In this document: positions 160 through 17,677 of the stretch, in pieces | How the letters are laid out: every line of letters begins with the position of its first letter | Position numbering within the stretch: position 1 is the stretch's first letter | Assembly: GCA_039028615.1 (NCBI GenBank) | Contig: JBCCHT010000013.1 | Coordinates: forward strand, 128,001 to 192,000 | Origin: Myxococcota bacterium | GTDB lineage: Bacteria > Myxococcota_A > Polyangia > Nannocystales > Nannocystaceae | Reading direction: 5' to 3' | DNA: 64,000 nt | Position numbers and translations under genes: made by a program | The notes under the pieces: model-generated | What the model was told of the DNA's origin: nothing | What the model saw: the letters and a program-made list of their open reading frames with translations, nothing else | Database searches by the model: none

Positions 160-2016
160 ATGTCGACTCGCGTGAAAACCGCAGATCGCGCTTCTCGTGG
201 CCGTCGCTCGCTCCTGGTGGCGTTGGCGACGATCGGACTGGCTTCGGTTCCCGCGTGCCGAGGCGGCGCGCCGTCGGGCCAGGAGGACGGCGGCAAGCAA
301 GCTCCGGCCGCTGCGGATTCGAAGAAGGTCGACGACCCCGCCGTCGCCGACGGTGCGCGCAGCATGCCCGCCGTCGAGGCCGAGCCGCCCCGCGTCGCGG
401 TGGGCACACAAGGAGCCGTCTCCAGCGCCGAGGCCAACGCGTCTCGGATCGGCGTGGAGGTCCTGAAAAAGGGAGGCAACGCCGTCGATGCGGCGGTGGC
501 CGTGGGGTTTGCCCTGGCGGTGACGCATCCGTCGGCGGGCAACTTGGGCGGCGGTGGCTTCCTGGTGGTGCGCTTGGCCGACGGCAAGACGGCGGCGATC
601 GACTACCGGGAGGAAGCGCCCGGGGCTGCGTCGCGCGACATGTACCTCGACGCCAAGGGCGAGCCGAGCAACGAGCGCTTGCTGGGGCCCAAGGCGGCCG
701 GCATTCCGGGCACGGTGGCCGGCCTGGCCAAGGCCCACGAGCGCTTCGGTACGCTGCCCTGGAAGGACTTGGTCGAGCCCGCGGTGCGCTTGGCCAAGGA
801 CGGGCACACCCTCGATTCGTTCCACGCCAAGGACCTGTCGTCCGGCTCGGGGCGCATGATCAAGGCGGGCTTCAAGGACTCCGCGGCGTACTACCTCAAG
901 GCCGACGGCACCGAGTACGCGGAGGGAGACACCTGGGTCCAACCCGAGCTCGCACAGACCCTGCAGGCCATCGCCGACGGCGGTCCCCGGGCGTTTTACG
1001 AGGGGCCGCTGGCCGAGCGGATGGCGGCCGAGGTCAGCAAGGCGGGCGGCATCTGGAAGGCCGCGGACCTCAAGGCCTACGACGCGGAAGAGCGCGAGCC
1101 GATCGCGTTCGACTATCGCGGCCACCAAGTGATCACGATGCCTCCGCCCTCCGCGGGCGGCATCGTACTGCGGCAGCTGCTGGCCGCGTCGGAGTCGATG
1201 AACCTGCAGCAGCACCCCTGGCGCGGGCTCGACGAGGTGCACCTGTTCACCGAGGCCATGCGCCGCACCTATGCCGACCGCAACATGCTGCTGGGCGACC
1301 CGGGCTTCGTCGAGCTGCCCATGGACTCGCTGCTCGACACCAAGTACGTCGCCAAGCGCATGTCGGACATCGATCCGAACAAGGCGACGCCCTCGGACGA
1401 GGTCGGGGCCGGGCTGCCCGTGGGGCGCGAGTCCGAAGAGACGACGCACTTTTCCGTCGTCGACGGCCAGGGCAACGCGGTCTCGAACACGTACACGCTC
1501 AACCTCGGCTTCGGGGCGAAGTTCGTGGTGCCGGGCACGGGCGTGCTGCTCAACAACGAGATGGACGACTTCTCGGTCAAGCCGGGCTCGGCCAACATCT
1601 TCGGCCTGGTCCAGGGGGAGCCCAACAAGATCGAGCCGGGTAAGCGCATGCTCAGCTCGATGACCCCCACCATCGTCGTGCACGAGGGCGAGCTTCGGGC
1701 GGTGGTCGGTACGCCGGGCGGCCCGACCATCACCACCACCGTGGCCACCATCATTCGCGGGATGATCGACTACGACCTCACCCTCGATCAGGCCATCGCC
1801 TCGCCCCGCGTGCATCACCAGTGGAAGCCGGACCAGATCTGGGCCGAGGATCGCCTCGACGACGCGGTGGAGACCGGGCTGCAGGGCAAGGGGCACGGCC
1901 TCCGCACCCGCGGGGGCATGGGCCACGCCAACTGCATCGAGGTCGACCCGAAGACCAAGGGCTTCGTGGCGGTGGCCGACGTCGAGCGCGACGGCGGAGC
2001 CGCGGTTGCCTACTGA
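160..2016 (+). CDS. ggt: Gamma-glutamyltransferase (lipoprotein)
   Basis: GGNAVDAAVAVGFALAV...GNLGGGGF, IDYREEAP, catalytic Thr in EETTHFSVVD, LLNNEMDDFS, PGKRMLSSMTP, GTPGG; N-terminal signal ending VPAC. Confidence 0.95.
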   Translation: MSTRVKTADRASRGRRSLLVALATIGLASVPACRGGAPSGQEDGGKQAPAAADSKKVDDPAVADGARSMPAVEAEPPRVAVGTQGAVSSAEANASRIGVEVLKKGGNAVDAAVAVGFALAVTHPSAGNLGGGGFLVVRLADGKTAAIDYREEAPGAASRDMYLDAKGEPSNERLLGPKAAGIPGTVAGLAKAHERFGTLPWKDLVEPAVRLAKDGHTLDSFHAKDLSSGSGRMIKAGFKDSAAYYLKADGTEYAEGDTWVQPELAQTLQAIADGGPRAFYEGPLAERMAAEVSKAGGIWKAADLKAYDAEEREPIAFDYRGHQVITMPPPSAGGIVLRQLLAASESMNLQQHPWRGLDEVHLFTEAMRRTYADRNMLLGDPGFVELPMDSLLDTKYVAKRMSDIDPNKATPSDEVGAGLPVGRESEETTHFSVVDGQGNAVSNTYTLNLGFGAKFVVPGTGVLLNNEMDDFSVKPGSANIFGLVQGEPNKIEPGKRMLSSMTPTIVVHEGELRAVVGTPGGPTITTTVATIIRGMIDYDLTLDQAIASPRVHHQWKPDQIWAEDRLDDAVETGLQGKGHGLRTRGGMGHANCIEVDPKTKGFVAVADVERDGGAAVAY

Positions 2017-2035
2017 CAACGGGACACCTGCAAGG

Positions 2036-2746
2036 ATGGACGCGAAGATGACCGGTGCGACCGTCGTCCTGTTCGATATCGACGGAACCCTGCTCACCGC
2101 CAAGGGAGCGGGGCGTCGAGCCATGGAAGAGGGCTTTGCCGCGGTGATCGGCAGCAGCCACGGCTTGGCGTCGATCCGCTTCGCGGGCGGCACGGACCCC
2201 GCGATCGTGCGCGAGGGGCTGGAGGCGATGGGGCAGGCGGTGGACGACCGCCGGATCGACGCCGTCATCGAGGCCTATCTCGAGCGCCTGCCTCCGCAGC
2301 TCGAGGCGGCTCCGCCCGTCGTGCTGCCTGGGGTGCTCGCGATGCTCGATCGGCTGGAGCCCATGACCGACGTCGCCATCGGGATCGGCACGGGCAACGT
2401 GGAGGCCGGGGCACGGGCCAAGCTGCGGGCGGCCGGGCTCGATGAGCGCTTCGGGTTCGGCGGCTTCGGGTCCGACCACCACCTGCGGGCCGAGCTGTTG
2501 CGGGCGGGCGCACGCCGAGGGGCGGCCGCGTTGCAGCGCTCCGAGTCCGAGTGCGCGGTCCTGGTCATCGGCGATACGCCCAAGGACGTCGCCGCGGCGC
2601 ATGCCATCGGGGCCCGCTGCATGGCCGTCGCCACCTCCTACTACGACGCCGACGCGCTCCGAGCCACGGGAGCCGACCTGGTCGTGGAGGATCTCGAGCA
2701 GCCCGAGGCCATGGCCTGGCTGCATGACCAGATCCGGGCCGCCTGA
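2036..2746 (+). CDS. HAD-superfamily hydrolase (phosphoglycolate phosphatase-like)
   Basis: Motif I LFDIDGTL, TGN, motif IV IGDTPKD; start could be 2036 or 2048. Confidence 0.9.
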   Translation: MDAKMTGATVVLFDIDGTLLTAKGAGRRAMEEGFAAVIGSSHGLASIRFAGGTDPAIVREGLEAMGQAVDDRRIDAVIEAYLERLPPQLEAAPPVVLPGVLAMLDRLEPMTDVAIGIGTGNVEAGARAKLRAAGLDERFGFGGFGSDHHLRAELLRAGARRGAAALQRSESECAVLVIGDTPKDVAAAHAIGARCMAVATSYYDADALRATGADLVVEDLEQPEAMAWLHDQIRAA

Positions 2747-2857: not shown

Positions 2858-4036
2858 ATGGAGCGTATTGGCGAATACCTGGTGTCTCGTCTCATCGGTG
2901 AGGGTGGGATGGGGAAGGTCTATGAGGCGGAGGAGCGGCTTTCGAAGCGCAAGGTCGCGCTGAAGGTGCTGCGACCCGAGCTGGCCCGCAACGAGGACGG
3001 CCGCCGGCTGTTCCTCAACGAGATGACGATCTTGGCGCATCTCGACCACGCCAACGTGGTGCGGTGCCTGGCCTGTACCGAGGTCGACGGCGACCTGGTG
3101 ATGGCGCTCGAGTACCTCGAAGGGCCCACCTTGCGGCAGGTGCTGTCGGATCGCGGGCGGATCTCGTGGACCGAGGCGGCCGCCATCGTGGTGCAGATCG
3201 CCGCCGGTCTGGGCGCGGCCCATCGCCAGGCGCCGCCCATCGTGCATCGCGACCTCAAGCCCGAAAATGTCATCGTGCTGCCCGACGGGCGGGTCAAGGT
3301 GATGGACTTCGGCATCGCCAAGGTGCTCGAGGCCATGCGCAAGGGCACCACGCAGTCGGTGGGCACCTTGCAGTACATGAGCCCGGAGCAGATCGACGCG
3401 GGCGAGATCGGGCCCGCCACCGACCTGTATGCGCTGGGGCTGGTGTTCTACGAGCTGCTCAGCGGGCAGCCGCCGTTTTGCTCCGCCTCGCCGCGAGAGC
3501 TGCTCAACCTGCAGTGCACCGAGCCGCCGCCGCCCTTGCCCGATGATGTCCGCAAGGGCTTGCCGCGAGGTGTCGAGCGCTTGGTGTTTGCGTTGCTGCA
3601 AAAGGACCCGAAGGATCGGCCGGAGTCGGCCGACGATGTGATCGAGACGCTCGAGCCCTTCGCCGCGGCCGAGCTGGATCTGGGCGTGGGCATACCGGCG
3701 GGCGGCAGCACGTCGAAGTCGCCATCGAGCTCGGGGGCCCGCGCGTCGTCCTCGGGGCGCGCGGCCGTCGATACCGATCTACCTTCGCCGGCCGAGGCGG
3801 GGGCAGGCAGCACCCCCTCGCCCGTGGCCCGGCCCCCGGTGGCGGCGGCGGACACCATCGGCCTCATCGAGCGCGCCAGCGGACCGAGGCAAATCTCGGG
3901 CTCCATGGCGCTGGTCATCATCGTGGTGCTCTCGGCGATGGCGGGGCTGGTCACCTATCTCGTGCGCACGGGCGAGGCCTCGGGCGCGCCGATCGACTCC
4001 AGCGCGGTCACGGCGGTGGCCCAGCCCGGGCGGTGA
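2858..4036 (+). CDS. Hanks-type Ser/Thr protein kinase with C-terminal TM helix
   Basis: GEGGMGKVY, VALK, HRDLKPEN, DFG, YMSPEQ, DLYALG all intact; hydrophobic MALVIIVVLSAMAGLVTYLV followed by a short tail. Confidence 0.95.
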   Translation: MERIGEYLVSRLIGEGGMGKVYEAEERLSKRKVALKVLRPELARNEDGRRLFLNEMTILAHLDHANVVRCLACTEVDGDLVMALEYLEGPTLRQVLSDRGRISWTEAAAIVVQIAAGLGAAHRQAPPIVHRDLKPENVIVLPDGRVKVMDFGIAKVLEAMRKGTTQSVGTLQYMSPEQIDAGEIGPATDLYALGLVFYELLSGQPPFCSASPRELLNLQCTEPPPPLPDDVRKGLPRGVERLVFALLQKDPKDRPESADDVIETLEPFAAAELDLGVGIPAGGSTSKSPSSSGARASSSGRAAVDTDLPSPAEAGAGSTPSPVARPPVAAADTIGLIERASGPRQISGSMALVIIVVLSAMAGLVTYLVRTGEASGAPIDSSAVTAVAQPGR

Positions 4037-4043
4037 GCCAGTC

Positions 4044-7000
4044 GTGACGGACCCGTCCAACTCCTCGACCTCAGAAGAGACTGCGCCCGCCCAGGCAGTG
4101 AAAGAGCGGCGAGACGTCGGGCGGGCTTCGTGCTCGACCCTCGTCGATGGCTCGGAGCTATGGCGGTGGTCCGACCCGGCAGACCCGGCGGTGGTTCGGA
4201 TCGGGGCCTGGGAGGGGCTCGGGGGGTTCACGAAATCCGGCGTCGACCAGCAGGGCGCCTGGCAGTGGCGACCCGCGGCGGCGCAGCGACTCGACGCCTG
4301 GCTTCGCGAAGGACCGCATGCGTGGGCCGAGGTTCGATCGGTGGTCGTCGCGGTGGTCGAGCGCCTGCAGTGGTGCGAAGCCCGGGCGTTGTTCCCCGGG
4401 CCGCTGGATCCGGCCGAGGTCGTGCTCGACGAAGCGGGCGAGGACGTCGTGTTGCGGGCCGACGCGATGCTGCGGTCGCTGTGTGGAGACACGGCCGCGG
4501 AGACGACGGGCAGCCCCGGGCTCTCGCGTTGGGTGCCGCCCGAGCAGGCCAACGGCGAGCCGTGGGACAACGCCGCGAATCGCTACGTGGTGGGCCTGGT
4601 GCTGTACCGCGCGCTGTGTGGGCATCATCCGTTTTCTGGGCAGGGGCTGCGCCGTGGGCTGCAGCAGCAAGCCCAGCAGGGGGCGGCGCCGTTCCCCGAC
4701 GAGGTCGCACGCGAGGTGCCGCCGGGGTTGCAGTCGCTTTGTCTGCAGCTGCTCGAGCCGCAGGTGTCCGGTCGGCCCGCGTCGGCGAAGGCGGTCGCGC
4801 AGCGCCTCGAGTCGCTCGAGTCGCCGCCAGCCGCCAGCCCGCCCGAGCGCCCGCGTACGCCGAACGTCACCCAGGCTCCCGTGGCGGTCGTTCGAGCCAA
4901 GAAACCGGCGACGCCCAGTCCTCCGCGTGCGGCGTCGGCCGGCCACCGTGGCGATCGCTGGTGGCGACGCGTCGGCATCGTGGCTCCGCTGGTCGGTGGG
5001 GCTGCGCTCGCGCTGGGCATGAGCACGTTCGTCGAACCGCCGGCCCCGGCCGCCCCGCCACCCCAGGTGGGAGACGCTGCCCCGCTGACGCTGGACCAGA
5101 CCTCCGCGGACGATTGCGCCGCCTGTCACCCGCGCCAGGTCGCGCAGTGGAGTCAGTCGGTCATGGCTCATGCCGCGCGCAGCCCGATGTTCCAGGCGCT
5201 CGAGATCCTGATCCAAGAGCAGGTCGGTCGTAGCTTCGATTGCCCCGAGGGCGCGGGCGCGCTGCGGAGCGTGGACCCGCGCACCGCCTGTCGCGAGCCC
5301 AACGAAGGGCGGGCCATCACCGGTTCCGGCGGCGAGCTGTGGTGCGTCAACTGCCACGCCGCGGGCGAGAACCTCAAACCGGTCATGCCCGCGTGGGACG
5401 GCCGCGCGCGCAACTCTGCCAGTCGTCGTCCGCTTCGTGACCTGCTGCCCGATTCGGCGATGGAGGGCATCTCCTGCGCCGTCTGCCACACCACGCACGG
5501 TCCGGTGCGCCCGGGCGACGAAGAACTGGGGCGCTACGAGGGCAACCCGGGCTGGGTCTCGTTCATCACGGGCGATCGGTTTTCGTCGCGACCGGAGGAC
5601 CGACGCGGGCTCTTCGGCATCGCCAACAGCGGCTACTCGCTCGACCCTGGGGTGCTGATCGCCGGGCCGGGCGATGACGACCGTGTGCCCGGAGGGGCCC
5701 ATCGACGCACGCCGCCCGAGACCCGGGAGTACCTGCGTCGCAGCGAGTTCTGCGGGGCGTGCCACGACGTGCGCCTGTTCGGGACCGACGTCGTGGGGGC
5801 GCGCGATCGGGGCGAGCACTTCAAGCGCCTGCGCAATGCCTACTCGGAGTGGGACGCCTGGGCCACGGCCGAGCGCCGGGCGGGGCGGCAGCCCGCGTCC
5901 TGCCAGGATTGCCACATGAGCGAATTCCCGGGCCTGTGCGTGCCCGATGGCGACGGCCTCGGGGCATCGTTCATCGATCCCGGCGCCACTGCGCTGTTGC
6001 GGGCGTGCCCGCCCGGAACCCACTTCGAGTCGCGACAGCCCGGCGACTACCCCAAGGGCCGGGCCTCCATCGCGTCCGACGAGGCGACGATCACCACCCA
6101 CTACTTCTCGGGCGTCGATGCTCCGCTGACTCCCGGCATGGTCGAGGAGCTGATCGAAGACCCGCGCCTCGACGAGACCGGCGTGCCGCGGGGGCTCAGC
6201 CCGCGACGCGACATCCTGCTGGGCCGAACCTTCCGCTTCGAGGTGCGCGGGGCCGAGGCTCGTGGGGGGCTGCTCACCATCCCCGTCGAGCTCGAGAACG
6301 AAAACGCCGGGCACCGGGTCCCGGCCGGCTTCTCCCAGGAGCGCGAGATCTGGGTGCACCTGAGGGTGACCGACGCCGAGGGACGGCTCGTCTACGAAGT
6401 GGGGCGGGTCGATCGCGGCGACGAGGACCTGCACGACAAGCAGTTCGTGCGCGTCAACGTCGATGATCGCTTGGTCGATGCCCAGGGCCAGCCGCAAGGC
6501 GTGTTCGGGGCCGACGTTCGCGACGGGCCCGACGTGCCGCAGTGGAGCCCCTCGCCCCGCCTGGGCGGCTCGCGGTTCCGCGGCAAGGGCCTCATCAACC
6601 TGCAAAACGGGTTCTTGCGCTGTGTGACCTGCATCGGGCGGATCGACGCGTCCGGGCGCTGCCAGCCCTTGCCGGGGCAGGGCAACTTCCGCGCCGATCG
6701 CTTTGCCGACGGCCAATACGACCTCGATACGGGGGAGTGCGGCTCGAACCTCGTGGGTGACGAAGCGTTGTTCGAGATTTACTTCCCGGTCGGCGCTCTC
6801 GATGCCACCCGCGGAGGCACGCGGGGCCCGGATGCGATCATCGACACCCGCTCGGCGCCGCCGGGCGTGCCGCTGCGCTACGCCTACGAGCTTCCCACCA
6901 ACGGCGCCTCGGGTCCGTTCACCGTCGATGCGCGGCTGATGTTCCGGGCCTTCCCTCCGTTTCTGGTGCGAGCGTTCGCCGACTACGAGGCGATTCAAGA

Positions 7001-7100
7001 CGCGCGAGGCAACCGACCCAGCGGGCCCCTGGTGACCCACGATATGCTCGAACGGCTCGAAGTGGTCGAGCTGAATCGGGTGCGCGTGACCCTTCCATGA
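4044..7100 (+). CDS. Pseudokinase domain + TM + multiheme (5x CxxCH) cytochrome c
   Basis: Kinase C-lobe remnants (WVPPEQANGEP, YVVGLVLYRALCGHHPF, RPASA) with no HRD or DFG; TM VGIVAPLVGGAALALGM; CAACH, CVNCH, CAVCH, CGACH, CQDCH; C-terminal NAGHRVPAG...IWVHLRVTD segment typical of multiheme c families. Confidence 0.85.
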   Translation: MTDPSNSSTSEETAPAQAVKERRDVGRASCSTLVDGSELWRWSDPADPAVVRIGAWEGLGGFTKSGVDQQGAWQWRPAAAQRLDAWLREGPHAWAEVRSVVVAVVERLQWCEARALFPGPLDPAEVVLDEAGEDVVLRADAMLRSLCGDTAAETTGSPGLSRWVPPEQANGEPWDNAANRYVVGLVLYRALCGHHPFSGQGLRRGLQQQAQQGAAPFPDEVAREVPPGLQSLCLQLLEPQVSGRPASAKAVAQRLESLESPPAASPPERPRTPNVTQAPVAVVRAKKPATPSPPRAASAGHRGDRWWRRVGIVAPLVGGAALALGMSTFVEPPAPAAPPPQVGDAAPLTLDQTSADDCAACHPRQVAQWSQSVMAHAARSPMFQALEILIQEQVGRSFDCPEGAGALRSVDPRTACREPNEGRAITGSGGELWCVNCHAAGENLKPVMPAWDGRARNSASRRPLRDLLPDSAMEGISCAVCHTTHGPVRPGDEELGRYEGNPGWVSFITGDRFSSRPEDRRGLFGIANSGYSLDPGVLIAGPGDDDRVPGGAHRRTPPETREYLRRSEFCGACHDVRLFGTDVVGARDRGEHFKRLRNAYSEWDAWATAERRAGRQPASCQDCHMSEFPGLCVPDGDGLGASFIDPGATALLRACPPGTHFESRQPGDYPKGRASIASDEATITTHYFSGVDAPLTPGMVEELIEDPRLDETGVPRGLSPRRDILLGRTFRFEVRGAEARGGLLTIPVELENENAGHRVPAGFSQEREIWVHLRVTDAEGRLVYEVGRVDRGDEDLHDKQFVRVNVDDRLVDAQGQPQGVFGADVRDGPDVPQWSPSPRLGGSRFRGKGLINLQNGFLRCVTCIGRIDASGRCQPLPGQGNFRADRFADGQYDLDTGECGSNLVGDEALFEIYFPVGALDATRGGTRGPDAIIDTRSAPPGVPLRYAYELPTNGASGPFTVDARLMFRAFPPFLVRAFADYEAIQDARGNRPSGPLVTHDMLERLEVVELNRVRVTLP

Positions 7101-9418
7101 ACGACGCTTGGTCCGAGGTCTGGCGGGCGCCCGTATTGCGGGCGCTCGACGATCCGGCCCGACGAGCCCTGAGCGCGGCCGGTCGGATCCGAGACCTGCC
7201 GCCGGGGCATCGGATCTTCACCGAGCGCGATCCGGCCGACGCCCTGTACGTGGTGCTCGAGGGCAGCGTGGAGCTTCGGGCCCAGCGGCGTGGCGACGAG
7301 GCGGTGTCGCGACTGCGCACCGCGAGAGGGGGCGATACCTTCGGCGAGGAGGCGCTCGGCGGCGCAGGCTCGCGGCGGGGGCAGGCCTGGACCGAGGACG
7401 CGACGCGCGTGGCCGAGCTGCCCGCGGCCTTGTTTCTGCGCGGGGTGGGGCGCAGTGGAGGCGCGCCCCTGGCCGAGCGAGAGCTGCGAAGGCTGCGGCG
7501 CAACGCCACGGGAGACCTTCTGCGCACGATGGCGGCCACCCGCACGCTGGCCGAGGCCGAGCTCGATCGGGTGATCGATGCCGTCGTGCCCGAGACGCGC
7601 TCGCGCGGCGCCATCATCTACGCCCAGGGAGACCCCGCCGATGGCCTGTGGCTGGTGGTGGACGGGTTGGTGCAGCTCCAGACGGAGACCGACGACAAGA
7701 TCCACGTGCAGGCCTACCTGACCCGGGGCGACGGCTTCGGCGACCAGGAATCGCTGTCGGGCGACACGCGATCCGCCGCGGCGGTGGCGATGGGGGAGAC
7801 CCGGTTGCTGCGCTTGCCCGCATCGGTGCTTCGTAGCCTCGTCGACCGCAATCCGGGCCTGGTCGATGCGATGCGGCGTATCGCCCAGGCTCGCGAGCAG
7901 CGGCAGGTGGAGGCGGTGGGCGGTGCGGCGGCGCGCTCGACCCAACACGTGTTCAAGGACCTGTACCGCATGCAGATGGCCCGCTCGCTGCTGGTCATCG
8001 ACCAGGAATCCTGCGTGCGTTGTGGCCACTGCGCGTGGACCTGCGAGTCGCTGTATGGCGTGTCTCGTTTGGTGCGGCGGGGAGACAAGATCCTCACGCC
8101 GATGGGGGAGGGCGGGGACGCGTTGCACAGCCTGCTGGTGCCCAACTCCTGCCAGCACTGCAAGAACCCGGTGTGCATGATCGACTGCCCCACGGGCGCG
8201 ATCGGTCGTGACCTCGAGGGGGAGGTCTTCATTCGCGACGCGCTGTGCACGGGATGCGGCAACTGTGCCAAGGCGTGCCCCTGGGAGAACATCCGCATGG
8301 CGCCACGGCCCACGGCACCACGTCGCGAGGATCCGGTCGAGGCGTTGTCGGCCGAGCTGGCGACCAAGTGCGATCTGTGTCGCGGCTACGAGGCGCCCGG
8401 GTGCGTGCAGGCCTGTCCCACGGGCTCGCTGGTGCGACTCGACCCGAGCCGCGACGTGGCCGAGGTGGCCGCGGTGCTGGGCACGGGGGCGTCGGCGTCG
8501 GACGACACTCCCGCGATGGCCGGCCGGGCGCGGGTGCACGGGGTGGTGCGGGGCCTCGGTGTCGTGGTCGGCCTCGGTCTCGGCGCGACCGGGCTGCGGC
8601 TGCAGCAGGTCGGCACCTGGGTCCCCGGGCAAGACCAGGGGCTCGTCGCAGGAATCGTGGCGGCGGTCGGCATGCTCGGTTTGCTCTCCTACGCCGCGCC
8701 CAAGCGCATCTCGGGCCTGTGGATGAAGCGTCGGCGCAAGACCAGCGCCGCGCGTCGCCTGGCCGCGCAGTCCGAGGGCCAGACCGAGACGCGCCCCGTG
8801 CCTCGCTCCAAGGTTCGCGGCTGGCTCAGCCTGCACGCGGTGCTCGGCATGCTCACCATGGCTGCGGTGCTCGGGCACGCCGGCCTCCGGGTGCCCAACA
8901 ACCCCGCGGGAAGCCTCGTGGTCGCCTTTTGGGCGGTCTCGGTGCTCGGGATCTTCGGTGCCGTGGTCTATCGCGTGGTGCCCCGTCGCCTCGCTCGGCT
9001 GGAGCGCCGCGGTGACCTCCCCGAGGATCTGAAGGCCGAGCGCCAAGCCCTGCTCGATCGACTCTTCGTGCGGGCCAGCGGTCGCGACGACCTGGTCAAG
9101 ACGATCGCCAGCCGGGTGCTGGTGCCCTATGCCCGCGCCCCGCTGGGACCCTTGCGGCTGCTCGCCTCGGGGCGAAGCCTGGCCGAGGAGCGAGCACGCC
9201 TGACCGTTCGCATCGACACCATGCGGCAGGGCAGGGGCGATGCCCGCCTCGGCGGCCTGGACGAGCTGGTGACCATCGCGGTGCAGCTGCGGGCACTGCC
9301 CTTGCGTCGCGGGTTGACGGCGGGTCTGCGGGGATGGCTGCCGCTGCACATCGTGGTGTCGGCGGTGGCCTTGGCTTTGCTCGGTGTCCATGTGGCGCTG
9401 ATGCTGGGGGGACCGTGA
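7097..9418 (+). CDS. Tandem cNMP-binding domains + DmsB/NrfC-type 4x[4Fe-4S] domain + di-heme b membrane domain
   Basis: Two CAP-ED-like repeats (IFTERDPADALYVVLEGSV..FGEEAL; IYAQGDPADGLWLVVDG..FGDQES); CVRCGHCAWTC, CQHCKNPVCMIDCP, CTGCGNCAKACP, CDLCRGYEAPGCVQACP; two TM helices with H-x13-H; ATGA overlap with the upstream gene. Confidence 0.88.
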   Translation: MNDAWSEVWRAPVLRALDDPARRALSAAGRIRDLPPGHRIFTERDPADALYVVLEGSVELRAQRRGDEAVSRLRTARGGDTFGEEALGGAGSRRGQAWTEDATRVAELPAALFLRGVGRSGGAPLAERELRRLRRNATGDLLRTMAATRTLAEAELDRVIDAVVPETRSRGAIIYAQGDPADGLWLVVDGLVQLQTETDDKIHVQAYLTRGDGFGDQESLSGDTRSAAAVAMGETRLLRLPASVLRSLVDRNPGLVDAMRRIAQAREQRQVEAVGGAAARSTQHVFKDLYRMQMARSLLVIDQESCVRCGHCAWTCESLYGVSRLVRRGDKILTPMGEGGDALHSLLVPNSCQHCKNPVCMIDCPTGAIGRDLEGEVFIRDALCTGCGNCAKACPWENIRMAPRPTAPRREDPVEALSAELATKCDLCRGYEAPGCVQACPTGSLVRLDPSRDVAEVAAVLGTGASASDDTPAMAGRARVHGVVRGLGVVVGLGLGATGLRLQQVGTWVPGQDQGLVAGIVAAVGMLGLLSYAAPKRISGLWMKRRRKTSAARRLAAQSEGQTETRPVPRSKVRGWLSLHAVLGMLTMAAVLGHAGLRVPNNPAGSLVVAFWAVSVLGIFGAVVYRVVPRRLARLERRGDLPEDLKAERQALLDRLFVRASGRDDLVKTIASRVLVPYARAPLGPLRLLASGRSLAEERARLTVRIDTMRQGRGDARLGGLDELVTIAVQLRALPLRRGLTAGLRGWLPLHIVVSAVALALLGVHVALMLGGP

Positions 9419-11496
9419 GCGAGCCGTCGCCGCCCTCCGAGGGCATGTTCTCGGCGCCCGCGTCCAGCGTAGGGCGGCGTCGGACCGCGCCTCGGGCCGA
9501 GCACACGAGCGACGTGCTGCGCTTCCGTGGCGTGTTGGTGGCGGCCGTGGGCGCAGCGTTGGCCATCGTGGCGGCGGTGGTGGGCAGCGTCGATCCGGTG
9601 CGCAGTCGATCTCCGGGGCCCTTGTCTCGCCCCCACGTCGCGGCGCAGCTGAGCTGTGCGAGCTGCCACGTGGACGAACAACCGATCGTGGACCAGTGCG
9701 TCGGGTGCCATGGTCCGCACCCCTCGGTGCGACCGGGTCATCGACGCCTGGCGCAGGCAGGCACCCTACGCTGCTACGACTGCCATGCGGTCCATGTCGA
9801 CAACGGCGGCGTGGCGTTCACGCCCGAGGGCGCCGTGTGGCGCTATGGCCCGGGGTCCGAGCAGCGCGTCCCGGACCTGCCGGGGCCCAGCGAGCTGGCG
9901 AAGGAACAGCGCGTGCCCGTGGTGCCCTTGGCTCGTTGCGCCCGCTGCCATCGCACCAACGCCCCGCTCGATCCGATGGGGCGCTGCGCCATCGGGTCCG
10001 ACGAGCAACTCGGGGAGGCGCGCCCCACCGTGTGCTTCGACGAACATCGAGCCTTTGCCACCGACGCGTTTTCCGGGGGCGAAGCGGTCTACGAGCGCTC
10101 CCGGCTGTGGGCGGTCGCCCGCGAGGCGGTCGCCCGAGTGCCCGTGCTGCCCCCACCGAAACGCGAAGGCCCCGGCTCCTGGTGGTGGCTCTTGCTCGCA
10201 GGCGGCGTCGGTCTGCTGTCCTGGGGCATGGTGCGGATCGGGGCTCGGTGGTTCGGGCGCCGGACAACCTCCACCACGACCACCCCGGTCGAGCCCCCCA
10301 AGATCCGCCGACTCCCGCAGATCGACACCACGACGTGCATTGGCTGCCACGCCTGCGTCGATGCCTGCCCCTACGACGTGCTCGAGGTCCGCAGCTTCGT
10401 GGCCCACGTCGTGCGCCCCGACGATTGCTGCGGGCTGACCCTGTGCGAGCAACGCTGCCCCAACGGCTCGCTGGTGATCACCGATGGCGAGCCCATCGAA
10501 GACCGCCCCCGCGTCGACGAGCACCTCCAGTCCATCGACACGCCTGGGGTCTTCGTGGCCGGCGACCTCACCGGGCTGCCGCTCATCCGCAACGCGATCA
10601 ACCAGGGCTCGCAGGCGGCCGCGGCCGCGATCGAGAGCCTCCGCGGCGAGCCCCGGTCCGGCGATGCGGAGCGGCTCGACCTGCTGATCGTGGGCTCGGG
10701 CCCGGCCGGGCTCAGCGCGTCCTTGGCCGCGACCGAAGCCAACCTGAAGTACGCCACCCTCGAGCAGGGCAGCGTGGCCGAGAGCATCCAGTCGTTCCCG
10801 CGCGGCAAGCTCGTGTTCGATCAGCCCCTGGGGCTGCCGCTCGAGGGCGATCTGTGGCTGCGCGAGTCGACCAAAGAAGAGCTGCTGGGGCAGTGGCGCC
10901 GCATCATTCGCGCCCGCGGGCTGGCCATCCACGAGCACACCCGCGTGGTCTCCATCGATGCGCGGCCCGGCGAGCATCCCTCGTTCGAGATCGAGGCCAG
11001 CACCCACGAGGGCCCACGGCAGTGGCGAGCGCGTCGGGTGATCCTCGCGCTCGGCCGCCGCGGGACGCCGCGCAAGCTCGCCGTGTCCATCCCCGAGGCG
11101 GTGGCGTCCCGGGTGCACTACAGCATGGCCGACGCCCGCAGCTTCGCCGGCCAGCGGGTGGTGGTGGTGGGGCTCGGTGACGTGGCCATGGAGGCCGCGG
11201 TGGCGCTGGCGCGACAGCCCGGCACCACCGTCACGATCTCGTATCGGGGCGACGACTTCCGCCGCGGCAAGGGGCGCAACATCGAGCAGGTCCAGCGCCT
11301 GGTGGCAGCGGAGCGCATCGACCTACGCCTGGGCACCGAGGTCCAGGCGGTGACCGAAGACGCCGTGACCCTCAGCCACGCGGACGGGCCCGTCGAGCTG
11401 CCCTGGGACACGCTGCTGGTCATGATCGGCTCCAAGGCGCCTTGGGCCTTTCTGGAAGCGGCAGGGGTCCGACGCGGCCGCGCGCCGTCGCTTTGA
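9415..11496 (+). CDS. Tetraheme cytochrome c + TM + 2x[4Fe-4S] ferredoxin + TrxR/FNR-like FAD/NADPH oxidoreductase
   Basis: SPGPLSRPH..CASCH, CVGCH, CYDCH, CARCH; TM WWWLLLAGGVGLLSWG; CIGCHACVDACP / CCGLTLCEQRCP; TPGVFVAGD, GSGPAG, GLGDVA, SYRG; GTG start overlaps upstream TGA. Confidence 0.88.
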   Translation: MSEPSPPSEGMFSAPASSVGRRRTAPRAEHTSDVLRFRGVLVAAVGAALAIVAAVVGSVDPVRSRSPGPLSRPHVAAQLSCASCHVDEQPIVDQCVGCHGPHPSVRPGHRRLAQAGTLRCYDCHAVHVDNGGVAFTPEGAVWRYGPGSEQRVPDLPGPSELAKEQRVPVVPLARCARCHRTNAPLDPMGRCAIGSDEQLGEARPTVCFDEHRAFATDAFSGGEAVYERSRLWAVAREAVARVPVLPPPKREGPGSWWWLLLAGGVGLLSWGMVRIGARWFGRRTTSTTTTPVEPPKIRRLPQIDTTTCIGCHACVDACPYDVLEVRSFVAHVVRPDDCCGLTLCEQRCPNGSLVITDGEPIEDRPRVDEHLQSIDTPGVFVAGDLTGLPLIRNAINQGSQAAAAAIESLRGEPRSGDAERLDLLIVGSGPAGLSASLAATEANLKYATLEQGSVAESIQSFPRGKLVFDQPLGLPLEGDLWLRESTKEELLGQWRRIIRARGLAIHEHTRVVSIDARPGEHPSFEIEASTHEGPRQWRARRVILALGRRGTPRKLAVSIPEAVASRVHYSMADARSFAGQRVVVVGLGDVAMEAAVALARQPGTTVTISYRGDDFRRGKGRNIEQVQRLVAAERIDLRLGTEVQAVTEDAVTLSHADGPVELPWDTLLVMIGSKAPWAFLEAAGVRRGRAPSL

Positions 11497-11638
11497 CGGG
11501 CCCCGAAGTCCGGTCGACGCCGTGCCTCCAGCTGGCGTAAAATGCGCAAACGCTTGGTGTCGCAGGCCCGTCAGATCGACGGTGCTCGTCGTGCGTATCG
11601 ACCTCCGGGCGCGTTTGTTGCGCAAGGGAGTCGTCACC

Positions 11639-13147
11639 ATGAAGCTCGGGACCGTCGCGTTGCTCTCCACCTTGGGGATGGCCCTCACCAGTATGAGCGT
11701 GTGGGCCCTGACCCCGCCGACGGGCGGCCAATCGGGTTCTCCGGCCCCGCAAACGGCTGCCGCGGCGGTCCGGCCCTCCACCGGGGGCGGCGGAGGGGGC
11801 AGCTTGCTCGCCGATCTCGTGGGGGGCTCCGACGGCGCGACCTTCACCTCGGGCTCGACCCTCATGCTCGAGGGGCGCCTGGGTCATCCCACCGTCGATG
11901 GCGCCCGCGACAACGAGACCTTCCTGATGCTCAACGTGGCCGCGGCCGCCGAGGAGCTGGCCTCGACGCCAGCCCCGGTCAACCTCTCCATCGTCATCGA
12001 TCGCTCCCGCTCGATGGAGGGTCGACGCCTCGACAATGCTCTGTCCGCCGCACGGGGCATGATTCGCCGCCTTCGCGATGGCGACACGGTCAGCGTCGTC
12101 ACCTACAACACCGACACCTCGGTGGTGGTCCCGGCCACCGTGCTCGACCGCCGCACCCGCGAGAGCGTGCTGTTCTCGTTGCGTGGCGTCGAGGCCCGCG
12201 GCCATACCTGCATCTCCTGCGGCATCGAGACCGGCCTCGACACCATGGGCCAGCGCCCCGGGGTCTCCCGCATGCTGCTGCTCAGCGACGGCGAGGCCAA
12301 CTCGGGCATTCGCGACGTGCCGGGCTTCCGCACCCTGGCCGAGAAGGCCCGCAGCCGCGAGGTCGCCATCAGCTCCATCGGCGTCGACGTCGACTACAAC
12401 GAGCGAGTCATGTTCGCGGTGGCCCAAAGCTCCAACGGCCGCCACTACTTCGTGGAGAACGAGGCCGGGCTACCTCGCATCTTCGACGAAGAGCTCGACA
12501 GTCTGGTCCGCACGGTAGCCAACCGGGCCGAGGTCGAGGTCGACCTGGCGCCGGGCGTGGAGGTCCTCGAGGTGCTCGACCGCAGCTTCACCCGCGATGG
12601 CAACCGAGTCTTTGTGCCCTTTGGTGCCTTCGCGATGGGGGACACCAAGACCCTGCTCATGCGGGTGAGGGTCCCTCGCGGTCAGTCGGGCGACCTGCCC
12701 GTGGCCGAGGTGAAGATGCGCTACGAAGACCTCACCCGGTCTCGCCCCGGTCTTTGCGAGGGCTCGCTCATCGCCCAGCGCACCGACGATCCGGCGAAGG
12801 CCGATCCCCTCGATCCGATCGTCGAGGCCCGGCTGGCGCGGGCCGAGACCGGCGCCGCGCTGCGTCGCGCCAACGAGCTGTTCAACGAGGGCGACATCGA
12901 AGGGGCCCGACGCACGCTGGGCAGCAGCACCGGTCGCATTCAGAAGCGCCGTCGGGCCAGCCGCAACAAGGCGAAGAAGGCGGATCAGCCCCTGCTCGAC
13001 CAGGACTTCGAGCGTCAGCTCAGCACGCTCGAGCAAGCGCAGAAGGGCTTCGAGGAGGCGGCCTCCGAGGCCGCGCCGACCAGCAGTCGCCGCGGCAAGG
13101 CCCAGGTGCGGAGCAACGCCAGCTCTCTGGACGAACTCGGCCTGTAG
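11639..13147 (+). CDS. Secreted VWA-domain protein (YfbK / Ca-activated chloride channel homolog-like)
   Basis: Signal peptide; MIDAS VIDRSRSM, T, LLSDGEAN; SD-like AAGGGAG upstream of ATG 11639. Confidence 0.88.
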   Translation: MKLGTVALLSTLGMALTSMSVWALTPPTGGQSGSPAPQTAAAAVRPSTGGGGGGSLLADLVGGSDGATFTSGSTLMLEGRLGHPTVDGARDNETFLMLNVAAAAEELASTPAPVNLSIVIDRSRSMEGRRLDNALSAARGMIRRLRDGDTVSVVTYNTDTSVVVPATVLDRRTRESVLFSLRGVEARGHTCISCGIETGLDTMGQRPGVSRMLLLSDGEANSGIRDVPGFRTLAEKARSREVAISSIGVDVDYNERVMFAVAQSSNGRHYFVENEAGLPRIFDEELDSLVRTVANRAEVEVDLAPGVEVLEVLDRSFTRDGNRVFVPFGAFAMGDTKTLLMRVRVPRGQSGDLPVAEVKMRYEDLTRSRPGLCEGSLIAQRTDDPAKADPLDPIVEARLARAETGAALRRANELFNEGDIEGARRTLGSSTGRIQKRRRASRNKAKKADQPLLDQDFERQLSTLEQAQKGFEEAASEAAPTSSRRGKAQVRSNASSLDELGL

Positions 13148-13318
13148 CGGCCGGGTGCTCACGGTGCCGCGGCGGAGCGAGCGGCCGCGGTTCGGATGGT
13201 AGGCGACTGTGGGCGAGGGGACGGGCCGCCGTCTGAACACGGACGAGCCTCACGCACGGATTTGTCGCGCTTGCCCTGGTCTTTGGGCCAGGGGCAGGTA
13301 TCATCGTGCGCCCGAACC

Positions 13319-13777
13319 ATGCAGGTCGCAGTCGGAAAAGACGTCGAAGCAGTCTGTCGCAAGTGTGGCGAGGTCTGGCACGTCATCGTAGCCGTCGAGA
13401 CGGGCAAGATCATGAAGGTCCAATGCAAGCAATGCATGGCCTATCACCGCTACAAGCCCCCCGAGGGTGAGGCCCGGGTCGATGCCGCCCCGCGCCGCCG
13501 CGCCGCGTCGAGCTCCACCGCCACCAAGAAGAAGACGACTCGGAAGAAGACGGCGAAGAAGAAGGCGAAGAAGTCGCCCTACGACGAGCCGCTGACCGAG
13601 CCCGATCTTTCGCGGCCGATTCGGCCCTACAACATGAACGATCGCTACCAGCCGGGTGATCGCGTGCAGCACCGCAAGTTCGGCGAGGGCGTGGTCGAGA
13701 TCATCACCGGCCAGGGCAAGATGAACGTCTTCTTCGAGGACGGCCGCAAGACCTTGGCCCACGACCGGGGCGGCTAG
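13319..13777 (+). CDS. Zn-ribbon + Lys-rich linker + PcrA/UvrD C-terminal Tudor-like domain protein
   Basis: CRKC...CKQC; KKKTTRKKTAKKKAKK; YQPGDRVQHRKFGEGVV...VFFEDGRKTL. Confidence 0.75.
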   Translation: MQVAVGKDVEAVCRKCGEVWHVIVAVETGKIMKVQCKQCMAYHRYKPPEGEARVDAAPRRRAASSSTATKKKTTRKKTAKKKAKKSPYDEPLTEPDLSRPIRPYNMNDRYQPGDRVQHRKFGEGVVEIITGQGKMNVFFEDGRKTLAHDRGG

Positions 13778-13858
13778 TCGCCTCAGCTCGTCTCATCGTT
13801 GCCGCCGTCGGGCCCGTCGTGACCCGCGGCGGCTTCGCAATTGGCCTCGGGGCGTCGC

Positions 13859-14980
13859 CTACGGGTACTGGGCCCGCAGGTCCAGGGCGTCGAAGTAGCC
13901 GTCGCAGAAGCTGCCGGCCGCCTTGCGGCAGTTGGCCTCGACACGAATGGTGCGGGTGCCCGCGGGGACGATCCGGGACTCGTCGAATTGCGTCCACGCG
14001 TTCGTCGACGTCCAGTCCATGGTCCACGTCTCGAGGTTCGCTCCGCCGCCGTCGCGGTAGAAGATGCGGAAGCGGATCTCGTCGTTGTTGAATTCGAGCG
14101 AGCGAGCGAAGCCGCTGAAGGCAAAGCGCATGGCCCCCGCATCGATGGTGGCCGCCCACGCGTCGGCGGCCACGTCCTGTCGTAGCCGGAACGCTTCGTT
14201 GTTGGGGCCCCCGGCGGCCACGATGAAGTTCGAGCCTTCCTGCGGGGTGAGCCAGCCTCCCGTGGTCCAGCCCCCGACCACCGCGGTCCAACTCAGCGGG
14301 GGCTCGCCTCCGTCCTCCCCGCCGGGGTTGGCCAGCAAGTTGCCGCTCTGGCCCTGTCCGCCGCCGCTGAGGGGCCGCTCGGCGTCGCTGGCCGCGTCGT
14401 AGGACACGGCGACCATGCCGTCGTAAAGGCCCAGATCCTGCGGGCTGAAGCGAACCTCCAGCGTGCACTCCTCCCCCGGATCGAGGGTCTCGCCACACGA
14501 GCCTCCGTTGCCGGGGTAGCTGCCCCCGTTGAAGTCGAAGTCGGCGCCCGTGGTCGAGCCCGACATGCCCGTCGCCGTCCCGTCGCCACCGTTGGTCACG
14601 GTGAACACGTGGAGTTCTTGCTGCTGGATCGGCACGTTGCCGAAATCGAAGACCGAGCCGTCGGAAATCTCGAGGGCGGCGGCCCCTGGATCGTCTCCGG
14701 TGCCCACGGTGGTGTCTTCGCCGGGGCCCGTGTCGGGATCGGTGGTCGCGGGCGGGGGGTCGTCGTCGTTACCCGTGCCTGCGGGGGCAGTGGAGGAACC
14801 GTCATTGCCGGGGGTGTCGCTCGTGGCCATCCCCATGCTGGTCGCGCTCGAAGTCGCTCCGTCCGAAGTACTGCCGACCGGGTCGCCCACGGTATTGGCC
14901 GCGGCTGTGCCCGCCCCATCCGCGTTGAGCTGACACGCCATCAATGGAAGCAGCAAGCATGTCCCGCAATACAGTCGCAT
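13859..14980 (-). CDS. Lipoprotein: Ser/Thr/Gly linker + choice-of-anchor D (Ig-like) + FBA/galactose-binding-like domain
   Basis: Lipobox LMAC; FDFGNV...FTVTNGG...CGETLDPGEECTLEVRFSP; NLLANPGGEDG...W...VPAGTRTIRV. Confidence 0.75.
   Translation of the reverse strand: MRLYCGTCLLLPLMACQLNADGAGTAAANTVGDPVGSTSDGATSSATSMGMATSDTPGNDGSSTAPAGTGNDDDPPPATTDPDTGPGEDTTVGTGDDPGAAALEISDGSVFDFGNVPIQQQELHVFTVTNGGDGTATGMSGSTTGADFDFNGGSYPGNGGSCGETLDPGEECTLEVRFSPQDLGLYDGMVAVSYDAASDAERPLSGGGQGQSGNLLANPGGEDGGEPPLSWTAVVGGWTTGGWLTPQEGSNFIVAAGGPNNEAFRLRQDVAADAWAATIDAGAMRFAFSGFARSLEFNNDEIRFRIFYRDGGGANLETWTMDWTSTNAWTQFDESRIVPAGTRTIRVEANCRKAAGSFCDGYFDALDLRAQYP

Positions 14981-15409: not shown

Positions 15410-17677
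<2,268 letters not shown>

Follow-up and report, generated by a model that had tools for sequence, protein, structure and literature searches.

A 64,000-nucleotide stretch of contig JBCCHT010000013.1 from a Nannocystaceae bacterium (assembly GCA_039028615.1; G+C ~70%), hereafter the window, carries on its forward strand four co-oriented open reading frames (ORFs), termed G1 to G4, in which protein kinase-related, cyclic nucleotide-binding and redox modules are combined. G1 (2858-4036, 392 residues) encodes an intact Ser/Thr kinase; G2 (4044-7100, 1018 residues) a protein in which a pseudokinase, a transmembrane (TM) helix and a pentaheme cytochrome follow one another; G3 (7097-9418, 773 residues) a protein with two cyclic nucleoside monophosphate (cNMP)-binding domains, a four-cluster ferredoxin and a membrane domain with five TM helices and four His residues; and G4 (9334/9415-11496) a protein of the order TM helix, tetraheme cytochrome, TM helix, 2[4Fe-4S] ferredoxin and flavoprotein. 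The stop codon of G1 (4034-4036) and the GTG start of G2 (4044) leave a 7-nt gap, and the G2/G3 and G3/G4 junctions are ATGA (7097-7100) and GTGA (9415-9418) overlaps, respectively, which confirms the arrangement described in a first-pass annotation of this DNA. The candidate starts of G4 are GTG 9415 and ATG 9445, and both are retained because the homologue alignment starts only at P0004 residue 61; an alternative, longer frame from ATG 9334 would overlap G3 by 85 nt. Terminator-like sites are not in excess within the cluster (4 vs 3.2 expected in shuffled sequence).

Conservation of the gene cluster

Loci containing G3 relatives were collected by a pattern scan with one genome per species, of which 265 were confirmed and the best 80 analysed; neighbouring genes were placed by local tblastn, and the denominators given for them are the loci with enough flanking sequence. 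Sixty-nine of the best 80 loci are from named myxobacterial taxa (Nannocystaceae, Polyangiaceae, Kofleriaceae and others), the other 11 being labelled only as Deltaproteobacteria or proteobacterium, and the carriers include the named strains Enhygromyxa salina, Plesiocystis pacifica, Minicystis rosea, Chondromyces apiculatus and Polyangium species. G2 immediately precedes G3 on its strand in 64/67 loci (the misses being L041, L065 and L069), and G4 directly downstream of it in 59/66, with 6 of the other 7 keeping a G4 that is displaced by 1-5 kb or recovered as split matches. A kinase is encoded within 10 kb in 48/53 loci (upstream in all of these, with 44 co-oriented and 4 inverted) and was not found in L037, L039, L041, L054 and L060. 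The fusions are likewise kept, the cytochrome and flavoprotein of G4 being in one frame in 65/68 loci and the pseudokinase and cytochrome of G2 in 58/59. The cluster is strongly conserved in Polyangia, and the expectation that its genes would be co-conserved holds for G2, G4 and the kinase alike; the recurrence of synteny and fusions over dozens of species genomes is more than chance.

A second, paralogous cluster is present on contig 25 of the same genome (L085, ~5900-14100, minus strand), in the order G2-G3-G4-kinase and with 44-60% identity. That these are simply neighbouring genes with separate functions, forming no common complex, is highly improbable: synteny is tight over at least three named families, the gene overlaps in the window point to translational coupling, the fusions put periplasmic and cytoplasmic redox modules on single polypeptides, and all four genes have been kept after duplication. 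What can be said for such independence is that the position and orientation of the kinase vary between lineages, and that structure prediction, as described below, argues only weakly for a complex.

The distribution of the G3 membrane domain within the phylum is patchy, it being found at E <= 1e-10 in 16/401 sampled genomes with the present one included; without the latter, the matches fall in 2/4 genomes of family f1, 12/29 of f2 and one genome of f41, and the domain was not found at this threshold in, e.g., families f20 (0/34) and f23 (0/29) of the sample. When 1.84 billion representatives were searched with the membrane domain, the 20 matches that were checked either had it behind a cNMP/Fer4 module or were fragments. 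The protein P0271, considered as a possible cNMP-less form from outside the myxobacteria, was rejected as such, its relatives being 720-residue cNMP-Fer4-membrane proteins, the named ones of which are from Polyangiaceae, Labilithrix or Polyangiales; a metagenome scan with P0271 gave one unrelated weak match only. Variation within the cluster includes a ~4-kb insert between G3 and G4 in locus L047 (12240-16001, plus strand; L056 and L078 are similar by spacing), which encodes a 650-residue protein that matches no Pfam family, a SurA-like chaperone and a protein with a POTRA domain. This is a hint that some Polyangiaceae have a component in the outer membrane or envelope.

Cytoplasmic and membrane redox modules of G3 and G4

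The N-terminal region of G3 (~7118-7882) has tandem cNMP-binding domains (cNMP_binding, E 8e-31, in two stretches). The phosphate-binding cassette of such cyclic nucleotide-binding (CNB) domains consists of Gly-Glu/Asp and then Arg-x-Ala; over an alignment of 18 G3 sequences, residues G83, E84, R93 and A97 are invariant in the first domain (CNB-A), as are G215, R225 and A229 in the second (CNB-B), where Asp is the consensus residue after G215. By both sequence profile and fold, residues 1-270 of G3 resemble the tandem CNB-A/CNB-B regulatory subunits of PKA and PKG, and, as with those proteins, there is a Ser/Thr kinase to consider, here one encoded nearby. By contrast with PKA and PKG, the region N-terminal of CNB-A shows no inhibitor segment, and the output domain is an Fe-S/heme module. 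Binding of the kinase by the CNB pair, as in PKA, would be speculative here. The linker between the two CNB domains (7484-7516, residues 130-140) contains a conserved RxLRRxATRD stretch, which is similar to the basic substrate or pseudosubstrate sites of kinases and may simply be part of a helix.

The ferredoxin domain that follows (~7991-8446) passes the Fer4_11 cut-off in 18/18 members and has 16 invariant Cys residues in four cluster motifs. It is matched by the NCBIfam NrfC model (E 7e-19) and by HycB4 (7qv7_B, E 2e-20), with scores far short of all the equivalog cut-offs (TIGR03149, 68 bits vs 378; TIGR02951, 55 vs 214); on these comparisons, G3 belongs with the NrfC/DmsB ferredoxins at the domain level only. 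As in four-cluster subunits that have membrane anchors (NrfC/NrfD, DmsB/DmsC, HybA, DsrO, HycB), the Fer4_11 domain of G3 is joined to a membrane module. By contrast with subunits of the NrfC/DmsB type, that of G3 is apparently cytoplasmic, has no twin-arginine translocation (Tat) signal, is preceded by cNMP domains and is fused to an anchor unrelated to NrfD; moreover, no molybdopterin or hydrogenase partner is present at the locus. Assignment of the cluster as a molybdoenzyme or hydrogenase anchor module was considered and rejected, there being no catalytic partner in the locus or flanks.

The membrane domain of G3 (~8546-9409) has five TM helices in the model. It contains two invariant His pairs, H580/H594 in the third helix and H751/H765 in the fifth (codons 8834, 8876, 9347 and 9389), with a spacing of 14 in both, over 18 sequences sharing 48-74% identity. 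Two His pairs in a helical bundle are the classic ligand pattern for two stacked b hemes. The first-pass annotation had labelled this domain as of the NOX/ferric-reductase type, a label that is not supported at the family level, since the Pfam matches to DUF4405, Ni_hydr_CYTB and Ferric_reduct (PF01794, best E 0.024) are sub-threshold and occur in 7, 5 and 4 of the 18 sequences, respectively. When the full-length G3 model was compared with solved structures (Foldseek pdb; VIA pdb_via_wide), the matches listed were to the cNMP domains only. Two ESM Atlas results for the membrane domain are leads only, i.e. a score of 0.84 against a 'ferric reductase like' cluster and a TM-score of 0.52 to a Planctomycetota cluster, 19% of the members of which have Pyr_redox_3.

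The resemblance to NOX, FRO and MsrQ is in part one of chain logic, in that electrons would pass from cytoplasmic NAD(P)H via a flavin and two stacked b hemes to the outside of the membrane, and in part structural, in that the third and fifth TM helices of G3 are the two that carry His pairs. NOX5 is, in addition, regulated by Ca and has fused regulatory domains, a fusion logic shared with the present cluster. By contrast with NOX/FRO/MsrQ, G3 has five predicted TM helices rather than six; its His spacing is 14/14 vs 13/12 in NOX; six Fe-S clusters and nine c hemes are interposed; and the flavoprotein is of the two-Rossmann thioredoxin reductase (TrxR)/YpdA type and on a separate polypeptide. 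Membership of the NOX family was rejected, no family of the FNR type being among the matches of G4.

In G4, a first TM helix (9529-9585, from hydropathy) precedes the periplasmic tetraheme domain (~9655-9951; Cytochrom_c3_2/Paired_CXXCH), a second (~10180-10242, a hydrophobic stretch at residues ~283-303 that is below the hydropathy threshold and was placed by eye) follows it, and the 2[4Fe-4S] ferredoxin (10315-10473; Fer4) and the flavin adenine dinucleotide (FAD)/NAD(P)H domain (10543-11475; Pyr_redox_3, E 1.4e-29, with Pyr_redox_2 also above the Pfam cut-off) make up the C-terminal half. Over 17 sequences, four CxxCH motifs, four further His (H41, H76, H94 and H178 of A3) and eight ferredoxin Cys are invariant. 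A fifth CxxCH string, at residue 335, sits in the ferredoxin motif CxxCxxCxxxCP and its His varies among homologues; it is therefore taken as part of that motif, giving four hemes in G4 and nine in total. The 16 invariant Cys of G3 and the eight of G4 are enough for six clusters. The first-pass inventory of a kinase, a pseudokinase, two cNMP domains, six clusters, four membrane His and nine CxxCH hemes is in this way borne out by domain searches and invariant ligands.

The same annotation had described the flavoprotein as TrxR/FNR-like, of which the first part stands, in the form of a TrxR/YpdA-type enzyme, and the second does not, since the matches are to Pyr_redox_2 and Pyr_redox_3 and to no FNR-type family. 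The closest solved relatives are 7a76 (E 2e-18), 7a7b and 3ab1 (E 3e-15), which are YpdA/Bdr proteins and TrxR-type ferredoxin-NADP reductases; the TIGR04018 score of 122 bits is below the equivalog cut-off of 340. Like the TrxR-type ferredoxin-NADP reductases and YpdA (Bdr), the G4 domain passes both Pyr_redox_3 and Pyr_redox_2 and has no redox-active CxxC. By contrast with them, it shares its polypeptide with a ferredoxin, a TM helix and a tetraheme, and the FAD-binding GD motif, otherwise C-terminal, has moved ahead of GxGxxG: PGxxxAGDxTGxPLIxNAIxQG (10543-10608) precedes GxGxxG (10678-10720) in 17/17 homologues, and the last 48 profile positions of Pfam GIDA match G4 residues 392-439. From this order we infer a circular permutation of the TrxR/YpdA fold, which would bring the ferredoxin beside the flavin. 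Two invariant Arg residues past the second Rossmann strand (R578 and R584 of A3) are similar to the 2'-phosphate site for NADPH in TrxR.

The pentaheme protein and the kinase pair

The periplasmic part of G2 (5064-7097) is a 680-residue domain comprising a pentaheme and a beta-sandwich region, with CxxCH motifs at residues 358, 434, 478, 570 and 620 (codons 5115 to 5918). In a 24-sequence alignment, all five CxxCH are invariant, and so are another eight Cys, a CxxC among them, and the GAGHRVPAGFSQERE block; no other protein of the cluster is as well conserved as G2 (56-75% identity). Four of the invariant Cys (C520 and C523, which form the CxxC, C533 and C559 of A2) are in the beta-rich part (6621-6741, residues 860-899), where they could be joined in disulfides or bind a metal.

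A model of the outer domain (per-residue confidence, pLDDT, 73.5; pTM 0.78) has one clear match among solved structures, Thermochromatium tepidum pentaheme cytochrome c552 (5ze8), with a Foldseek E of 7e-8 and, in VIA, with Z 12.4 and a root-mean-square deviation of 4.0 over 348/385 aligned residues; the next VIA row (Z 9.3) covers the beta-sandwich only. By sequence, no match of G2 to solved chains was found (best E 1.5), and the NCBIfam search gave a faint match to ExtKL (E 3e-4). ESM Atlas scores of 0.94-0.95 against 540-785-residue multiheme clusters of Pseudomonadota, Acidobacteriota and Planctomycetota are leads only. In the accessible text of PMC11976967, c552 is grouped with ExtKL, GSU2801 (Geobacter) and cable-bacteria pentahemes in one pentaheme family and has no clear assigned role; a further preprint (bioRxiv 10.1101/2025.11.18.688581), as far as its available text goes, describes ExtKL/MccSep as a polysulfide reductase that depends on selenocysteine, and draws a comparison with c552. 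Like the members of this family (5ze8, ExtKL/MccSep, GSU2801 and the cable-bacteria proteins), G2 has five CxxCH motifs and then a beta-sandwich. By contrast with them, it has ~290 extra residues, is membrane-anchored and is fused to a cytoplasmic pseudokinase; unlike ExtKL/MccSep, it has no selenocysteine codon, there being no in-frame TGA, and it has no significant sequence match to solved chains.

Because the c552 family includes the ExtKL/MccSep polysulfide reductase, the G2 domain may be either a relay or an enzyme. For the same reason, the first-pass statement that no catalytic subunit is present is not safe as a whole: it stands for molybdopterin and hydrogenase partners, none of which was found in the locus or flanks, but the G2 pentaheme might itself be catalytic. 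The cluster would then be a complete NAD(P)H-dependent periplasmic reductase with G2 as its terminal enzyme, e.g. for sulfur or nitrogen species, a reading that we consider quite unlikely. The shared c552 fold, the comparison of the polysulfide reductase MccSep/ExtKL with that fold (in the part of bioRxiv 10.1101/2025.11.18.688581 that was available), the faint ExtKL match, the high conservation of G2, the ~290 residues that it has beyond c552 and its eight invariant Cys outside the heme motifs are consistent with a catalytic role; set against these, G2 has neither a selenocysteine codon nor a solved enzyme that matches it by sequence, five other His residues, invariant or nearly so (H36, H213, H346, H417 and H432 of A2), could make all five hemes bis-His with no open site, and T. 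tepidum c552 is itself without an assigned function in the accessible text of PMC11976967.

The cytoplasmic end of G2 is kinase-like. Its pseudokinase region (~4146-4823) has a weak match to the Pkinase C-lobe only (E 1.6e-4, under the Pfam cut-off) and is followed by a TM helix (residues 312-330, 4977-5033). The P+1/APE and alpha-F regions are retained; the G-loop, Lys, HRD and DFG motifs are missing in 12/12 rows aligned across them (the 13th row, L029, is a fragment without residues at the kinase motifs and was not counted), and the region is therefore called a pseudokinase. The uniformity of this pattern indicates that G2 is a conserved pseudokinase rather than a decayed gene. In G1, the kinase domain (~2879-3625; Pkinase, E 7e-55) is accompanied by one C-terminal TM helix (residues 351-369, 3908-3964), and the G-loop, VALK, HRD, DFG and SPE motifs are all canonical in 14/14 homologues. 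As judged by its motifs, all of which are kept, G1 is an active-type Hanks-type Ser/Thr kinase.

A distant relative from another family of the phylum, L087, has different signalling parts. The gene order there is a 306-residue octaheme protein, a G3-like protein (30% identity, same architecture), an FHA/G4-like protein and a cytochrome with at least nine CxxCH, which has a lipoprotein-like N-terminus and ends at the contig edge. The FHA/G4-like protein (P0387, 1069-5046, minus strand, 1325 residues) has at least three N-terminal FHA domains, a TM helix, seven CxxCH motifs, a second TM helix, a ferredoxin and a flavoprotein. FHA domains bind phosphothreonine. Two different Ser/Thr-signalling parts, FHA domains in L087 and the kinase/pseudokinase pair here, have thus been joined to the same redox core in different lineages, which suggests that coupling of the core to phospho-signalling arose more than once.

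It may be asked whether kinase signalling, rather than the bulk export of electrons, is in fact the main output, with the cluster acting as a redox-sensing receptor, in which the periplasmic hemes report redox state or a ligand through the G2 TM helix to the pseudokinase, the latter switches G1 on or off allosterically, and the NAD(P)H/Fe-S chain serves to poise or reset the hemes. The near-universal pseudokinase-pentaheme fusion (58/59 loci), the presence of a membrane-anchored kinase with intact motifs in 48/53, the phosphothreonine readers in place of these parts in L087, the cNMP sensors of G3 and the frequent role of pseudokinases as allosteric partners of kinases (in the available text of bioRxiv 10.1101/2025.01.12.632604) all fit such a receptor. 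It is nevertheless unlikely, in that fifteen predicted redox centres and a flavoprotein far exceed the needs of known heme sensors, and two loci, L041 and L069, retain G3-G4 without the kinase or G2. The same redox modules also occur in the ptd clusters discussed below, where no kinase is listed among PtdA to PtdG in the accessible text of the preprint.

Relation to ptd gene sets and proposed electron path

The first-pass annotation knew of no characterised complex with this architecture. That holds insofar as the literature searched gave no characterised system to match; the only match was a preprint (bioRxiv 10.1101/2023.11.21.568154) that, in its accessible text, already names an unfused set of such modules as the ptdABCDEFG operon, the function of which, it states, 'remains completely unknown'. 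As described there, PtdA is a pentaheme protein carrying a beta-sandwich at its C-terminal end and related to T. tepidum c552, PtdB a porin, PtdC an FAD/NAD(P) oxidoreductase, PtdD a periplasmic tetraheme, PtdE a cNMP-binding protein with 4Fe-4S, PtdF a ferric-reductase-like membrane protein and PtdG a decaheme; ptd is reported from Alpha- and Gammaproteobacteria, Nitrospirales and Planctomycetes of saline habitats, Myxococcota being unlisted in the text available. The words 'cytochrome' and 'heme' are absent from the main text of a preprint presenting an atlas of bacterial Ser/Thr kinases.

Five of the seven ptd modules, as far as that preprint's text describes them, have one-to-one counterparts in the window: PtdA corresponds to G2, PtdC and PtdD to G4, and PtdE and PtdF to G3. 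The likeness of G3 to PtdF lies in the four-His TM domain, the label 'ferric-reductase-like' that the preprint gives to PtdF being for G3 a sub-threshold match or an ESM Atlas lead only. By contrast with ptd as so described, the modules here are fused into three polypeptides, and a Ser/Thr kinase and a pseudokinase are added. There is also no decaheme in the 64-kb window, where no ORF other than G2 and G4 has two or more CxxCH in any frame, and no porin family was seen among the flanking ORFs scanned with Pfam, by which beta-barrels are easily missed and which covered the flanks rather than the whole genome. The cluster would be a lineage-specific, fused, kinase-linked form of a gene set that is already named and functionally uncharacterised.

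Domains with c hemes require periplasmic maturation. The predicted topology of G4 has the tetraheme between two hydrophobic helices, and the Fe-S/FAD parts are without an export signal; the c-heme domains are thus placed outside and the Fe-S/flavin parts in the cytoplasm, on opposite sides of the membrane, as the first-pass annotation had proposed. Since a single TM helix cannot carry electrons, the G3 helical bundle with its two His pairs is the only candidate conduit. The reading that we favour, and to which we give about an even chance, is that the products of the four genes make up a single redox module embedded in the membrane, a myxobacterial, fused version of the ptd type with signalling parts built in. 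Electrons would pass from NAD(P)H to FAD and two [4Fe-4S] clusters in the cytoplasmic half of G4, from there to the four-cluster ferredoxin domain of G3, across the membrane via two b-type hemes, for which the four invariant His in the third and fifth TM helices of G3 would be the ligands, and on to the periplasmic tetraheme of G4, tethered beside G3 by its two TM helices, so that G4 would clamp G3 from both membrane sides. The tetraheme would then reduce the pentaheme c552-like domain of G2, which would pass electrons to a periplasmic acceptor or itself reduce a substrate. What the analysis itself establishes is the domain content, the conservation of the cofactor ligands, the predicted topology, the gene fusions and the synteny; the loading of the cofactors, the complex, the order and direction of transfer, the preference for NADPH and the regulation are all proposed on this basis.

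Complex modelling of the redox proteins, which the first-pass annotation had suggested, was carried out with our own alignments, the first 260 residues of G4 being paired with the G3 membrane domain and two riding hemes. A score of 0.54 was obtained (runs 0.56, 0.51 and 0.54; best of 3 controls 0.00), with contacts agreeing to at least 85% between runs and a partner pLDDT of at least 71. The mark used is reached by 116/157 solved complexes and 2/215 mismatched pairs, and, among scores of 0.60 or less, it is reached by just 18 of those 157 solved complexes and by both of the passing mismatches; this calibration is only rough here because of the use of our own alignments and riding hemes. The modelling lends weak support to a G3-G4 complex.

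Several points weigh against a single redox module of the ptd type. The predicted G3-G4 interface supports a complex only weakly; the G3 model is weak in its Fe-S part (pLDDT <50); and heme b in G3 is proposed solely from the two His pairs 14 residues apart. The likeness to ptd would rest on architecture and on a common c552 (5ze8) relative rather than on sequence comparison. Further, L041 and L069 keep G3-G4 without adjacent G1 and G2, which, together with the missing kinase in 5/53 loci, means that the G3-G4 core does not require the signalling and pentaheme parts.

The direction of flow may also be considered. With the same components, the periplasmic cytochromes might take electrons from an external or periplasmic donor, the chain then reducing a cytoplasmic ferredoxin or NAD(P)+. 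TrxR-type ferredoxin-NADP reductases are generally known to be reversible, which would allow such inward flow. T. tepidum c552 is, moreover, called low-potential in the title of Chen et al. 2019. However, electron transfer from c heme to NAD(P)+ needs an input of energy, no coupling module is present, and the named carrier isolates belong to groups generally regarded as aerobic heterotrophs; inward flow is therefore very unlikely.

For the favoured single redox module, regulation would enter at three points, i.e. through a tandem cNMP sensor like that of the PKA regulatory subunit on the Fe-S/heme-b subunit G3, through a catalytically dead kinase domain at the cytoplasmic end of the pentaheme subunit G2, and through G1, a membrane-anchored Ser/Thr kinase with intact motifs encoded alongside. 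The presence in the module of a cNMP sensor and a pseudokinase with a kinase (or, in L087, FHA domains) makes a coupling between electron flow and phospho- or cNMP-signalling probable, whether in one direction or both. A more specific proposal, which is tentative and on balance doubtful, is that of a kinase- and cNMP-controlled electron-export machine, in which the pseudokinase is wired via one TM helix to the pentaheme, and either the kinase pair reads the redox state outside, or phosphorylation or cNMP gates the 15-centre wire.

Of the flanking genes, that directly 3' of G4 (11639-13147, plus strand) encodes a putative secreted VWA-domain protein (VWA, E 6e-17), with a signal-peptide-like N-terminus provided that ATG 11639 is the start. 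It is separated from G4 by 142 nt containing a promoter-like site (11514-11543). A homologue is found in 39/58 loci with enough sequence, directly 3' of G4 in 30/58, and in the Enhygromyxa-type loci it adjoins the inverted kinase; the VWA protein may be a fifth member of the system. A 755-residue protein with two CCG domains and Fer4 motifs, resembling HdrD/GlpC, is encoded at 15410-17677 (minus strand); since it is kept near the cluster in only 10 close loci, this is probably local synteny, outside the system. A gamma-glutamyltranspeptidase and a HAD hydrolase encoded upstream (160-2746, plus strand) are retained by just 10-11 close relatives.

If the chain works as proposed, Polyangia, i.e. 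large-genome soil and marine myxobacteria, would own a dedicated NAD(P)H-to-periplasm electron route. The conserved fusions seen here join the counterparts of PtdE and PtdF, and of PtdD and PtdC, as these are described in the accessible text of bioRxiv 10.1101/2023.11.21.568154, which supports, without proving, that the members of each pair work together. Were the kinase- and cNMP-controlled machine to be real, it would provide the first example of a multiheme ectodomain on a receptor-kinase-like protein (G2), and the first of a transmembrane redox chain under the control of eukaryote-like signalling. Experimental handles on regulation, which are missing from the marine metagenome-assembled genomes, are provided by the kinase, pseudokinase, FHA and cNMP parts, and, because the carriers include named strains and not only such assemblies, the function of the ptd-type family is testable by genetics and biochemistry.

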